Shown here: piece by piece, positions 42,612-47,005 of the stretch
Layout: every line of letters begins with the position of its first letter
Numbering within the stretch: position 1 is the stretch's first letter
Assembly: GCA_000092065.1 (NCBI GenBank)
Contig: CP000596.1
Reading direction: 5' to 3' (one strand)
Source of the DNA: Ostreococcus lucimarinus
Lineage: Eukaryota
Length of the DNA stretch: 64,000 bases
Made by a program: the position numbers and the translations under genes
Notes under the pieces: generated by a model
The model's database searches: none
Told to the model about the DNA's origin: nothing
What the model saw: the letters and a program-made list of their open reading frames with translations, nothing else

Positions 42612-42695
42612 TCAAGACCACAATGACTTAGACCAAGACCACGATGATTTAGACCAAGACCACAATGACTTAGACCAAGACCACGATGATTTAGC
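42612..42695. repeat. 21-bp minisatellite, 4 units (GACCAAGACCAC[A/G]ATGA[C/T]TTA).
   Basis: Read directly. It sits in the convergent 3' region between the PAS gene and the ChaC gene. Confidence 0.9.
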
Positions 42696-42886: not shown

Positions 42887-43468
42887 CTAGTCCCCGCGAA
42901 TCGCGCGCACGCTCGCCTCAAGCGCGTACAACTCTTCGTCTTCGATACCTAACCCCCGCAAAGCCTCGCACAGGTTGTATAAATATTCGGAATTTTCTCC
43001 AGACGGACCGCGCGCTGCAGCGATTTGCTCGGCTACATCGCTCGCGTCTCCGAGCCAGTTCAAGTTAGTCGTCGCCGGCGTCGCGATATACGTTACCGCG
43101 TTTCTTATCACCGGCACCGCGTTCGCGTCATCGACGTCGTATAAATCCATCTCAATCCTCTCGTCGTACTGTTTTTCTCGTATTTCCAGGTTCTCCAGCA
43201 CCGCCTCTCGGTCCTCTGCGCGAACTTCGTACGCGACGCCCCAGCACGCGACGTCCTCCGAGCAACGCTCTAACGTCGCCGTGCGCCCGGGCGCCGCGGG
43301 CGTTCCTCGATGGTCGGTGCTTCCTTGATAAAACCGTCGCCGAAACCCTCGCGCGCACACGGGCGCGATCGAGCGCGCGTACTCGAAGCCCGTGCGCCAC
43401 ACTATCGAACCGTATCCGAAGACCCATAACGATTCGTTCGCGCGCGTCGACAGCGGCGCGCGAGGCAT
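42887..43468 (-). CDS. CHAC: ChaC-family gamma-glutamyl cyclotransferase (glutathione-specific).
   Basis: Only the C-terminal 193 codons of the 561-aa ORF are genic: MPRAPLSTRANESLWVFGYGSIVWRTGF (ChaC signature LWVFGYGSLMW) ...YLYNLCEALRGLG. The rest of that ORF is antisense to the neighbouring rpiA-like gene. Confidence 0.8.
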   Translation of the reverse strand: MPRAPLSTRANESLWVFGYGSIVWRTGFEYARSIAPVCARGFRRRFYQGSTDHRGTPAAPGRTATLERCSEDVACWGVAYEVRAEDREAVLENLEIREKQYDERIEMDLYDVDDANAVPVIRNAVTYIATPATTNLNWLGDASDVAEQIAAARGPSGENSEYLYNLCEALRGLGIEDEELYALEASVRAIRGD

Positions 43469-43628
43469 GATGCCCACGTCGTGGTCTCGCGGCACGCGTT
43501 TCGCGCTCGAGCTCGCGCTGGCGACAGATCGGGCGCGATGCGCGTTCGACGCGCGCATCGCGAGCGAAGAAGCGAGGCGAACACTGGCGCGGCAGACGAC
43601 GACGCGTCGACGCTCGGCCACGCTCGCG

Positions 43629-44645
43629 ATGGCGCGCGCGACGGCGACGGCGCGCGCGACGGCGACGCGGAACGGCGCGCCGCGCGTCGTCGCGCGCGCG
43701 CGAGCGACGGCGCGCGCGGGCGCGGTGACGCGGCGCGCGAACGACGCTCGGGCGGCGAGGGCGGCGACGCTGAGGACGCGCGCGCGACGCGAGCGAACGC
43801 GCGCGCGCGCGAGCGACGCGCGCGTGGATGAATCCGACGATAGCTTCGCGTCCGCGAGCCTGTCGGCGGCGATCGCGCAGCGGGCGCTGATGATGATCGA
43901 ATCCAACGCCGTCGTGGGGTTGTCGCGGGGCGAACACGCGAGCGAGCTGGCGCGACGGTTGGCGGAGGCGCTGGAAAGCGGTGCGCTGGAGAACGTGAAA
44001 GTGGTGGCGCTCGAACCGTTGGCGGCGAAGGAATGCGCGGTGAACGGGCTAGAGATGCGATCGATCGATGAGGTGCGAGCGATCGACGTGACGTTCGCGC
44101 AGCCGAGCGAGTGCGCGGTGGTGGTGACGAACGGGCAGAAATCCATCGCGAGCGTGTTCGGACGAGAGACGACGCCGGTACAACCAGATATCGAACGCGC
44201 GAAGGCGGCAATGAAAAAGAGCGTCAAGGTGGTGCTGTTGAAGGAGCTTTTCGTGGATAAGATTGGCGGGTCCATCCCCATCGTTGTCGAGGCGGAAAAT
44301 TGGGAAGAACACGCGGAGGAGTTGGATGATTTATTTTTGGGCGACGCCGAGGTGTGGAGGCGAGGTGCGACGTTTGACGCGAACCCAAGAGGAGGGAAGA
44401 ACCCGTACGTCAGCGCCGACGGCTCGCACACGCTGTTAGACTTGCGATTTGAAGATCCCATCAACAGCGGTCGCTGGGAGTGCGGTTTGATGCTCGACGG
44501 CAAACCGTGCGGGCCGTACGAGTTACAATACGCGTTGGAAAACGATGTCGAAGGCGTGTTGGCGCATGGCATCTACACCCAAGCCGATGTCGTGATAACG
44601 TTGAATCCGGACACGTTAGAAGCGGTGACGATCGAACGCGATTAA
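43629..44645 (+). CDS. Ribose-5-phosphate isomerase A-like protein with substituted active-site/phosphate-binding motifs and a plastid-type presequence.
   Basis: RpiA-like fold. The C-terminus TFDANPRGGKNPYVSADGSHTLLDLRFEDPI...GVLAHGIYTQADVVI resembles RpiA ...PFVTDNGNYILDCHF..IEDP...GVVETGLF...ADVVIV. The canonical GLGTGST loop reads GLSRGEHAS. The DGADE region reads DVTFAQPSE. Confidence 0.6.
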   Translation: MARATATARATATRNGAPRVVARARATARAGAVTRRANDARAARAATLRTRARRERTRARASDARVDESDDSFASASLSAAIAQRALMMIESNAVVGLSRGEHASELARRLAEALESGALENVKVVALEPLAAKECAVNGLEMRSIDEVRAIDVTFAQPSECAVVVTNGQKSIASVFGRETTPVQPDIERAKAAMKKSVKVVLLKELFVDKIGGSIPIVVEAENWEEHAEELDDLFLGDAEVWRRGATFDANPRGGKNPYVSADGSHTLLDLRFEDPINSGRWECGLMLDGKPCGPYELQYALENDVEGVLAHGIYTQADVVITLNPDTLEAVTIERD

Positions 44646-44743: not shown

Positions 44744-47005
44744 TCAATCTCTCGCCAATACCTCGTCGCAATACGTCGAGAACATCTGAGTCTCCGCAAA
44801 CGCTCGCATGAACGATCTGTCTTGGCCTTGAAACGTGGCGAGGAACGAATCCTTGAGCAAAATTGTCACCTTTCCTTCGCCTCCTTCGTTCACGTCTGTG
44901 ATGGAATGATAACGTATGCTCGCGACGAGCGAGTTTAAATACGCACGCCACGCGTTGAGGAACTCGCGCGCCGCGTTGATCGCCTCTTGAGACGGGTCGA
45001 TGACTGGTCGCTTCTTGTGATTGACGGACGCCTCCACGATGGCTTCGTGAAGGGGGTGAAGATTGCGCACGAGATCCTTCATTCTCGGCAAACGCAACGG
45101 CTTACCCTCCCACTGTACCTTTACGTCGTCTTTGTACACGTTGATTCGAGTCAGATGATTCGTTCTGTTACGCAAATCGCTCGTTTTGTGCTGAACGCCG
45201 CACACAAACGGCACCGGCGCGTCGAGAAAATCAACCATGTGTTGCGGCAAGATTGGCAGAAAGAGCGACTGCCACCCGAATGGACGAAGCATTGGAATGA
45301 GCGCAAGAGAAACAGCGCTCAACTCGCCCAAGTTGTTACTAAACACCACGACTTGCTTTTCGAGCAAGACCGCGGTGAGAAGAGAGATGACATTTTCCAA
45401 ACTCAAACTGCAGCACAAGCTCACGACGGCCCATCCCTGAAGGTGAAATGCTTCTTCGGCTGGAGATATTCGCGCACTCTCCGGTAAGCCGACGATATTC
45501 GTATCTAACTGCGATGAAGCGCGCTCGGAAGGCACCGGTCGTCGAAATCGAATCGGTTTCACGCCGACGCTCGGAACGAACTCGCCGCTCGCGTCGCCCA
45601 AATCCGGGACGCGACACTGACTGTAATTTTCTAAAATTTTCATCGCTTCGTTCCCATCGCTTGATGACGGTGGTGATCGCACCCACTGGTCGCCATCGTT
45701 TCCTTCGTCGTCTGGCATCAAGTCGTGCATGTTCTGTTTGATTCGTTCGACCCGTTCCATGCCCAGGACGTGCGACAACACCTCGTAGTGCGTTTCAAAA
45801 AACGGCACCTTGCTCAAGATACAGTAACATCGCGGCGCGACTTCGATGTAGCGATGCTTCAAAGGTCGCGCCTCTCGTGAAGGCGAATCTTTCGCGCCGT
45901 ACGCATCCACCGCCGGCGCTCCCCGAAGATGCTGCACGATGGGCGGCGGTTGATGTAAGACTTCTGTGACGTACGCGCACACTCCGTACATGGGCGTGTT
46001 GTCGCTGGTTTGGACTTGAAAAACGAAAACCTGATCGTCGCCGTCGGTGTACGTCGTGCCGCACATGATTTCTTGCAACTTGCTCATACTCGGCGTGCGT
46101 TCGAGCAAACGCGGCTCGACGCCGTGCGGGAAACAAAACGCCGCCACTTCGTCCACGGCGAAATTCGGCGACGCTTCGCCGCCAGGATAATGAAACAACA
46201 CCGATGCTTTGTACGTTTCCCCAGCTGTACCTCGATACGCGCGCAGTTTGCGCGGATCGGTGATGGCGACGTCATCTGCCACACCGCTCGATCGCGCCTC
46301 TCGCGCCGCCGAAGCCGAGTCCGCCACCACGCGCACCTCCGCGCTCGGCTCCAATCCGCACACTAAAAACGCCTCCATCGTTTTCAACTTTTCCGGCACC
46401 CCACTCGCGGGCGTTCCCGACACACTCAACTTCCCCATCACGTCTAAATCTGCGCTCGAGCTCGCCGCGCGCTGGTCGCGCAACCACCGCCGTTTCTCCG
46501 CGGTCAGCTGTTCGGGATTGAACCACGCCGCGTGCGTGACGAACGCGTCGGGCGTCGTGTCGACGAACTCGTCCTCGTCCTCGTCCTCGTCCGAGGACGA
46601 CGAGCAAGCCGTACTCATCGCCGTCGGCGTCGCGCGCGACGCGTCGTCCATCACTAAATCATCGCTCGAACGGTCGCTCGTCGTCGCGTCCGCCTCGCCT
46701 CGCGCCGCGGTTCCCGAAAACGTCCGGTGCAGCGCATCGGCGAACCATCCCCCTCGACGCCACGTTGATCCTGATTCTGCGTCCGCGGGCGCGCTCTGCG
46801 CCCGCGCGAGTCTGCCTTCGACGTCGTCGCTCGTGATTTCTCGCGGCGCATCCTTTGCGTCGAGAGACGAGCTCGAGCGGTGATGATTGGCGACTATTTG
46901 TATGCCATCGACGACGAGCACGCCGCCCGTCGCGCGCGCGCGCGCGGCGTTCGCGTCGAACGCGTCGCGCGCGTCGTCCGCGTCGCCGGACGCGGGCCGC
47001 GGCAT
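44744..47005 (-). CDS. DENN-domain protein (Rab GEF-like; uDENN-DENN-dDENN).
   Basis: uDENN/DENN blocks FLVCGLEP, RCYCILSKVPFFETHYEVL and LSLENVISLLTAVLLEKQVVVFSNNLGELS, plus an LIPMLRPFGWQ-type segment. Confidence 0.8.
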   Translation of the reverse strand: MPRPASGDADDARDAFDANAARARATGGVLVVDGIQIVANHHRSSSSLDAKDAPREITSDDVEGRLARAQSAPADAESGSTWRRGGWFADALHRTFSGTAARGEADATTSDRSSDDLVMDDASRATPTAMSTACSSSSDEDEDEDEFVDTTPDAFVTHAAWFNPEQLTAEKRRWLRDQRAASSSADLDVMGKLSVSGTPASGVPEKLKTMEAFLVCGLEPSAEVRVVADSASAAREARSSGVADDVAITDPRKLRAYRGTAGETYKASVLFHYPGGEASPNFAVDEVAAFCFPHGVEPRLLERTPSMSKLQEIMCGTTYTDGDDQVFVFQVQTSDNTPMYGVCAYVTEVLHQPPPIVQHLRGAPAVDAYGAKDSPSREARPLKHRYIEVAPRCYCILSKVPFFETHYEVLSHVLGMERVERIKQNMHDLMPDDEGNDGDQWVRSPPSSSDGNEAMKILENYSQCRVPDLGDASGEFVPSVGVKPIRFRRPVPSERASSQLDTNIVGLPESARISPAEEAFHLQGWAVVSLCCSLSLENVISLLTAVLLEKQVVVFSNNLGELSAVSLALIPMLRPFGWQSLFLPILPQHMVDFLDAPVPFVCGVQHKTSDLRNRTNHLTRINVYKDDVKVQWEGKPLRLPRMKDLVRNLHPLHEAIVEASVNHKKRPVIDPSQEAINAAREFLNAWRAYLNSLVASIRYHSITDVNEGGEGKVTILLKDSFLATFQGQDRSFMRAFAETQMFSTYCDEVLARD

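Follow-up and report, generated by a model that had tools for sequence, protein, structure and literature searches.

An RPI4-type paralogue of ribose-5-phosphate isomerase A in Ostreococcus lucimarinus: a candidate pseudoenzyme stripped of catalytic and phosphate-binding residues

A 64,000-nucleotide stretch of the Ostreococcus lucimarinus genome (contig CP000596.1 of assembly GCA_000092065.1; hereafter referred to as the window) carries on its plus strand a gene whose product resembles ribose-5-phosphate isomerase A (RpiA). In all likelihood this gene is the O. lucimarinus orthologue of the RPI4 family of the Viridiplantae, which is itself, judging from sequence relationships, an ancient, nucleus-encoded and probably plastid-targeted duplicate of RpiA. 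Overall, we favour the reading, with a probability of roughly 0.6, that the protein is an RpiA duplicate without catalysis that likely serves as a non-catalytic binding module. A first-pass annotation, made from the letters of the DNA alone, had proposed a candidate pseudoenzyme or neofunctionalised RpiA paralogue at this locus. That proposal is borne out by the replacement of the catalytic residues in an intact predicted fold under purifying selection.

Homology of the protein to RpiA is real, if weak at the sequence level. As a single sequence it matches the Pfam family Rib_5-P_isom_A with E = 2.5e-7 (30.9 bits versus a cut-off of 26), and a phmmer search of the PDB returned as best match the Chlamydomonas enzyme RPI1 (CrRPI1; entry 6zxt) with E = 3.6e-4, while a profile built from 22 homologues matched the same entry unambiguously (E = 1e-22). 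The equivalog models were missed by a wide distance: the score was 26.6 bits versus a cut-off of 126.4 for TIGR00021 and 31.8 bits versus 192 for NF001924. Scores are thus about one fifth of the curated RpiA equivalog cut-offs or less, and the protein clears just the more permissive threshold of the Pfam domain. Residues 61-338 were modelled with AlphaFold2 from 48 homologues, and the model reached a mean predicted local distance difference test (pLDDT) score of 90.5 and a predicted template modelling (pTM) score of 0.88. When this model was used as a Foldseek query, the top 35 PDB matches were all RpiA, with template modelling (TM) scores of 0.76-0.87 normalised to the target, except for an incomplete E. 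coli chain that reached 0.67. According to the model, the complete two-domain RpiA fold is kept. The protein is also collinear with 50 homologues in the alignment, and a DESDD segment together with helix alpha-1 is conserved in the orthologues. Collinearity with RpiA, as perceived in the first-pass annotation, is therefore upheld by the Pfam hit, the profile match to 6zxt and the predicted fold.

Compared with canonical RpiA (EC 5.3.1.6; 6zxt and the E. coli enzyme), the order of elements is the same, and several features are retained: the G-R of KGRGG, the Glu of DGADE, GG-S-x-P, PYV..DG...DL.F and GV..HG. On the other hand, identity to the canonical enzymes amounts to 16-21%, and the catalytic and phosphate-binding side chains have all been replaced. 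HMMER profile alignments place Ala at the position of E. coli Asp81, Ser at Asp84, Phe at Lys94 and Ala at Glu103; the phosphate ligand Lys7 corresponds to Ser, the Ser/Thr of the phosphate loop to Glu/His, and GTGST as a whole to SRGEH, with one glycine of the loop replaced as well. The final Glu of DGADE is kept. Asp81 and Glu103 correspond to D115 and E137 of CrRPI1, which have been named as catalytic in that enzyme (PMC7589169). The same alignments reproduce the readings GLSRGEHAS and DVTFAQPSE, the two degenerate motifs that had been noticed before, and add to them the losses of Lys94 and Glu103, since the canonical KGRGGA-----LLREK reads FGRETTPVQPDIERAK here. Part of the latter segment is a 5-residue insertion of the PVQPD type, which land-plant RPI4 lacks and which almost every member from chlorophytes and prasinophytes possesses.

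The register of these motifs is independently supported, because the secondary structure of the model agrees with the HMMER alignments. In the model, strand 35-38 gives way to a loop and then to helix 42-57, strand 92-97 stops at the DGADE position, and strand 110-116 leads through a loop into helix 128-137. In both the profile alignment and the structural alignment, the catalytic positions are devoid of Asp, Glu and Lys, nor does a phosphate loop turn up elsewhere in the protein. Going by these replacements, isomerase activity, i.e. the conversion of ribose-5-phosphate (R5P) to ribulose-5-phosphate (Ru5P) and back, has very probably been lost.

The gene is no peculiarity of the Ostreococcus genome; it belongs to an already recognised paralogue family that is shared by other green organisms. 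A homolog search returned 51 relatives, including the Linum protein annotated as 'Probable ribose-5-phosphate isomerase 4, chloroplastic', and an exhaustive profile search yielded 260 cluster representatives at E<=1e-10. Wherever a member bears an organism name, that organism is a green-lineage one, namely Ostreococcus lucimarinus, Mantoniella, Chlorella vulgaris, C. variabilis, Pleodorina, Tetraselmis, Pyramimonas parkeae, Prasinoderma singulare and Linum. In BLASTP comparisons, the protein scores 103 bits against Linum RPI4 (E = 1e-30, 32% identity) and 49 bits against canonical algal RpiA. A neighbour-joining tree splits the family from canonical RpiA with 100/100 bootstrap support, and its inner order approximates the phylogeny of the green lineage, with Prasinoderma in basal position, a streptophyte cluster and a Mamiellophyceae-type cluster (94/100). 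This order indicates an ancient, vertically inherited paralogue. When 185,579 genomes of bacteria and archaea were scanned with the signature, 293 pattern matches and no homologue came up, for which reason a prokaryotic origin or an operon context was rejected. Two RpiA-like representatives from the profile search (P0174 and P0185) are intermediate, with DGADA or SGADE still in place and loops that are degenerate in part (VSGRD and LISGGG). They lack the RPI4 signature described below, group with canonical RpiA in the tree and may represent other, independent divergent RpiA lineages.

Within the family, degeneration has proceeded to different extents. The second glycine of the loop is Gly in 80% of the members, and the position of Asp84 is Asp in 80%. 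Land-plant members read NDADV and IGRR, meaning that Asp81 and Lys94 are lost while Asp84 is kept, and they retain the Glu103-Lys pair. Land-plant RPI4, that of Arabidopsis included, thus shares with the Ostreococcus protein the signature WxxxAEE(L/I)DDxFLGDAEVWRR, an N-terminal extension and the loss of Asp81 and Lys94, but it keeps GLGSG, the Asp84 equivalent in NDADV and the Glu103-Lys of IQEK, all of which are lost in Ostreococcus. It furthermore lacks both the PxQP(D/Q) loop insertion of chlorophytes and the 16-residue insertion RWECGLMLDGKPCGPY, the latter being present in the aligned chlorophyte members and missing from land-plant RPI4 and canonical RpiA. The Ostreococcus-type clade, supported at 100/100 bootstrap, has SRG(E/D)H in most and QPSE in all of its members and, by its sequences, is the most degenerate branch of the family.

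What unites the family is a segment outside the former active site. The signature WEExAEELDDxFLGDAEVWRR, or WEExAEE(L/I)DDxFLGDAE(V/I)WRR with its variants, hardly varies among RPI4 proteins, whereas canonical RpiA lacks this acidic motif of helix h5. Conservation was computed over 55 non-redundant members with less than 70% identity to each other; Linum RPI4 and all 55 members have the signature in common. In O. lucimarinus this stretch reads WEEHAEELDDLFLGDAEVWRRG, and 8 of its 22 residues are acidic. Mean conservation is 0.78 for the signature versus 0.43 for the whole protein and 0.37 for the ten former active-site positions, from which it follows that constraint has left the large-domain cleft and moved to the small domain. 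D173, R184 and D211 are 100% conserved, D174, R185, W165 and A180 98%, and E170 96%; D211 lies outside the signature segment. In CrRPI1, the corresponding helix h5 is part of the homodimer interface, together with the TDNGN loop and strand s10 (PMC7589169). We mapped all 33 CrRPI1 interface residues onto the protein, and the elements that would face h5 across a canonical dimer turned out to be unconserved in the family, the 3-10 helix scoring 0.29 and h4 0.32. Because of this, preservation of the canonical dimer does not explain the signature and was considered insufficient as its cause.

The gene is under purifying selection and is not decaying. The ratio of nonsynonymous to synonymous substitution rates (dN/dS) is 0.10-0.23 among orthologues of the Ostreococcus-type clade, at a dS near saturation. 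More distant orthologues were taken for this estimate, as the near-identical contigs, which have 2 nucleotide differences, are uninformative. MMETSP or Trinity transcripts exist for family members, so the family is expressed. With its catalytic residues missing, its predicted fold intact, purifying selection acting on the gene and retention from Prasinoderma to angiosperms, the protein would, on these sequence-derived grounds, qualify as a pseudoenzyme.

These results are in line with what has been written on the Arabidopsis family member RPI4 (At5g44520). In the passage that Andriotis and Smith devote to it, citing Xiong et al. 2009 (PMC6660741), the protein is said to have a putative plastid transit peptide and to miss two of the three catalytic residues, and it 'may have a different biochemical function'. 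According to the same passage, the rpi4 mutant has no observable phenotype, and RPI4 is judged unlikely to be an RPI. In Chlamydomonas, a second, chloroplast-predicted RPI, RPI2, is weakly expressed, its transcripts being 16- to 199-fold below those of RPI1 (PMC7589169). RPI2 (Cre07.g314600) probably represents the family in the volvocine algae, as suggested by a signature-bearing protein of Pleodorina starrii (P0059), which differs from the Ostreococcus protein in keeping GLGPG and ADADQ. Our literature search on At5g44520/RPI4 and Cre07.g314600 found expression lists in addition to these statements on RPI4 and RPI2, and no functional study.

How such a protein might act can be outlined as follows. 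An RpiA fold without catalytic or phosphate-binding residues would not isomerise ribose-5-phosphate and ribulose-5-phosphate; the protein would instead act through the surface of its small domain as a non-catalytic binding module, i.e. a pseudoenzyme. Its conserved acidic surface could dock a conserved, probably basic, plastid partner, for which another enzyme of the Calvin-Benson cycle or the pentose-phosphate pathway, or a regulator, would be a candidate. Alternatively, the small-domain surface may build a specialised oligomer. A protein-binding or regulatory mode of action, as suggested by the conservation patterns, is put forward tentatively. Bolder, and on balance doubtful, is the proposal that the RPI4 family constitutes a universal plastid component of the green lineage whose acidic motif, a functional site so far overlooked, is either the docking surface of a dead RpiA or a new metal-dependent active site. 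In the docking variant, the dead copy might regulate or scaffold Calvin-Benson or pentose-phosphate enzymes, for instance as a heterodimer with active RPI, beside the catalytic helix h4.

Several considerations weigh against a non-catalytic binding module. The term itself is founded on patterns of conservation, and plastid targeting is read from composition and from predictions for homologues. The conserved Glu, Asp and Arg residues may be placed on the surface, in internal salt bridges or in a pocket, and here lies the main weakness of the mechanism; so many invariant charged residues would equally suit a new catalytic or metal site. Moreover, outside the Ostreococcus clade both GxG(S/T)G and an equivalent of Asp84 persist in most members, and land plants also keep Glu103-Lys. 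Since most members keep the loop and the Asp84 equivalent, the ancestral protein may still bind a phosphorylated ligand.

The first of these considerations to be developed into an alternative is that of a neofunctionalised enzyme, in which the invariant acidic and Arg residues of the small domain, possibly spanning an oligomer interface and with a divalent metal, would form a new active site for a substrate other than R5P, leaving the old cleft vestigial. Complete invariance of D173, R184 and D211, with others at 96-98%, is typical of catalytic sites, and the family has been kept under selection since the base of the Viridiplantae, even in the very small genome of Ostreococcus. This possibility is nevertheless an unlikely one, as the signature matches no known catalytic motif, no homologue has a documented activity, and the small domain of canonical RpiA serves oligomerisation and has no catalytic role (PMC7589169). 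Nor does a consistent domain fusion point to a pathway: longer family members carry unrelated domains (Metallophos, an alpha/beta hydrolase and a TPT fragment), once each, and no fusion recurs in this Rosetta-stone survey, these extra domains probably being merged gene models and uninformative. The Arabidopsis mutant, as far as the cited passage goes, is without phenotype (PMC6660741).

Less probable still is a ligand sensor comparable to the DeoR-C/SorC sensor domains and the alpha/beta/delta subunits of eIF2B, which are non-catalytic members of the NagB/RpiA/CoA-transferase superfamily. Such a protein would bind a sugar phosphate or small anion in the old cleft without turnover and signal through the small domain. 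The glycine-rich loop and Asp84 equivalent kept by 80% of the members, and the Glu103-Lys pair of land plants, would fit this idea. In the Ostreococcus clade, however, the loop reads SRGEH with Glu in place of the phosphate-binding Ser, the equivalents of Lys7 and Lys121 are gone, and a cleft conservation of 0.37 versus a protein mean of 0.43 makes a common ligand for the whole family unlikely. The DeoR-C/SorC and eIF2B proteins are distant structural relatives over the large domain (133-170 aligned residues) and have neither the small domain nor the signature.

It is highly improbable that the protein is a working ribose-5-phosphate isomerase using non-canonical residues, as its automatic name implies. 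Besides the database names, this could be argued from the Pfam gathering threshold being passed (30.9 versus 26 bits) and from the predicted RpiA fold. Set against it are Ala, Ser, Phe, Ala, Ser and Glu/His where Asp81, Asp84, Lys94, Glu103, Lys7 and the loop Ser/Thr would be needed, scores of about one fifth of the equivalog cut-offs, and the statement, in the passage quoted above, that even the less degenerate Arabidopsis RPI4 is an unlikely RPI (PMC6660741). Finally, a decaying pseudogene or spurious ORF (open reading frame), for which one might invoke the long spurious ORFs that high GC yields on both strands of this DNA, is ruled out by frames intact in all orthologues, the dN/dS of 0.10-0.23, a signature invariant from Prasinoderma to flowering plants, a confidently predicted fold and orthologous transcripts.

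The features of the gene and its immediate surroundings are compiled in Table 1.

Table 1. Coordinates of the RPI4-like gene, its motifs and the adjoining ChaC gene in the window
Feature	Position	Strand	Basis or remarks
Coding sequence of RPI4-type RpiA paralogue	43629..44645	+	ORF listing; complete, 338 aa plus stop, no intron needed
N-terminal presequence, residues 1-66, Ala/Arg/Thr-rich	43629..43826	+	Composition; presumed organellar transit peptide
Helix alpha-1 of RpiA fold, residues 68-87	43830..43889	+	AlphaFold2 helix at 8-27 of modelled part; alignment to 6zxt
Degenerate phosphate loop GLSRGEHAS (canonical GLGTGSTAA)	43917..43943	+	HMMER alignments; between strand 1 and helix 2 of model
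Degenerate DGADE segment DVTFAQPSE (canonical DVAIDGADE)	44085..44111	+	HMMER alignments
Degenerate KGxGGxxxxEK segment VFGRETTPVQPDIERAK (canonical VKGRGGA-----LLREK)	44154..44204	+	HMMER alignments
Family signature WEEHAEELDDLFLGDAEVWRRG, helix h5 and following small-domain strand	44301..44366	+	Conservation, motif table
NPRGGKNPYVSADGSHTLLDLRF, counterpart of canonical G-x-P-Y-V-T-D-N-G-N-x-I-V-D-L	44382..44450	+	P, G, P, G, D, F conserved in family
RWECGLMLDGKPCGPY, 16-residue insertion	44472..44519	+	Gaps versus Linum RPI4 (BLASTP) and 6zxt
GVLAHG, counterpart of canonical GVV(D/E)HG(L/I)F strand	44553..44570	+	G and V conserved at 0.95-0.96
ChaC-family gene, 194 aa	42887..43471	-	PF04752, E=6e-47
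Divergent spacer between ChaC and RPI4-like gene, 157 bp between start codons	43472..43628	.	Coordinates

The ORF is uninterrupted up to its stop at position 44645, its ATG at 43629 is the first one clear of the divergent ChaC gene, and the interval delimited in the first-pass annotation is exactly the coding sequence including the stop codon. Over 251 aa, the protein is 100% identical to the deposited O. lucimarinus CCE9901 protein XP_001421931 (UniProt A4S9G7). This public model is 251 aa long, begins at Met88 (approximately position 43890) and is without the presequence and helix alpha-1. The deposited start was rejected, as it would delete a helix that is conserved in the orthologues and modelled with high confidence. 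Likewise rejected was an upstream start (ATG at approximately 43467), which would overlap head-to-head with the start codon of ChaC. On metagenome contigs, prokaryote-style gene callers lengthen the ORF upstream to 391-392 aa, into the start of ChaC. On the minus strand, a 561-aa ORF (42887-44572) runs antisense to most of the RPI4-like gene and reaches into ChaC; the ChaC gene accounts for just the 194 aa at its C-terminus, and the remainder is a spurious ORF of a type that arises with high GC.

The first 66 residues comprise 23 Ala, 19 Arg and 9 Thr, have an isoelectric point (pI) of 12 and contain their first acidic residue at position 39, whereas the part following the presequence has a pI of 4.5. 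This composition is consistent with a putative organellar transit peptide. N-terminal extensions exist in the orthologues too, while the presequence itself is unconserved in the alignment. Targeting to the plastid is plausible by analogy, in agreement with the predictions in the literature for the Arabidopsis and Chlamydomonas proteins. Tandem Repeats Finder (TRF) detected a GC-rich degenerate (cryptic) repeat at 43626-43824 (period of about 18, 65% matches) that encodes the presequence, its GCG and ACG codons giving rise to Ala, Arg and Thr. This suggests that transit-peptide-like extensions in the Ostreococcus genome can arise or expand via slippage of low-complexity DNA.

Divergent pairing with a ChaC gene, pointed out in the first-pass annotation, is real as an arrangement, the spacer presumably being a bidirectional promoter plus 5' untranslated regions, but it carries no functional signal. 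The gene order uL15, DUF819, ChaC, RPI4-like, DENN, dUTPase, COG6 is repeated in metagenome contigs that are 99% identical, and the near-identical contigs (L001-L004) are the only ones in which ChaC stands beside the RPI4-like gene. It is not adjacent in six further contigs (L005-L010), among them orthologous loci whose proteins are 73%, 68% and 49% identical and the locus of a more distant Mamiellophyceae-type member. As ChaC is not adjacent in orthologous loci, the pairing is best seen as incidental to a compact genome, and a functional link was rejected.

Downstream, a DENN-domain gene (753 aa, 44744-47005, minus strand) converges on the RPI4-like gene, the stop codons of the two lying just 98 bp apart. 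It is the sole recurrently syntenic neighbour in Mamiellophyceae-type loci, being adjacent downstream in two of the other contigs (L005 and L006) and a few genes off in another (L009). On the far side of ChaC, between its 3' end (42887) and the end of an upstream plus-strand ORF (42587), lies a tandem repeat at 42613-42694. It consists of two perfect 42-bp copies, or 3.9 copies of a 21-bp unit with 90-100% matches, and reads DLDQDH(N/D)D repeats on the plus strand. Searches of the 64-kb window with tblastn gave no canonical RpiA gene, and no tRNA gene or Rfam family reached threshold in it.

That Arabidopsis RPI4 is divergent was published as early as 2009, and the present finding is accordingly not new in kind; new are the family-defining signature, the recognition of the Ostreococcus clade as the most degenerate one and the purifying selection on the gene. 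Automatic annotation, both in UniProt (A4S9G7) and in the IMG calls on marine metagenomes, names the protein a ribose-5-phosphate isomerase, and because of this name metabolic reconstructions of picoalgae would count an almost certainly inactive enzyme. The constraint on the acidic motif of the small domain provides a concrete site for mutagenesis, and the Ostreococcus clade, being without residual catalytic residues, offers a good form for tests of the motif. If the bolder proposal of a universal plastid component holds, the stripped Ostreococcus protein would be the cleanest natural 'separation-of-function' form with which to demonstrate that the family does its work without the RpiA cleft. 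Green algae of the deepest branches and flowering plants alike have conserved this presumably dead copy of RpiA, which selection maintains even where the genome is among the smallest of any free-living eukaryote, and such long retention, as read from sequence, points to a function in the plastid.

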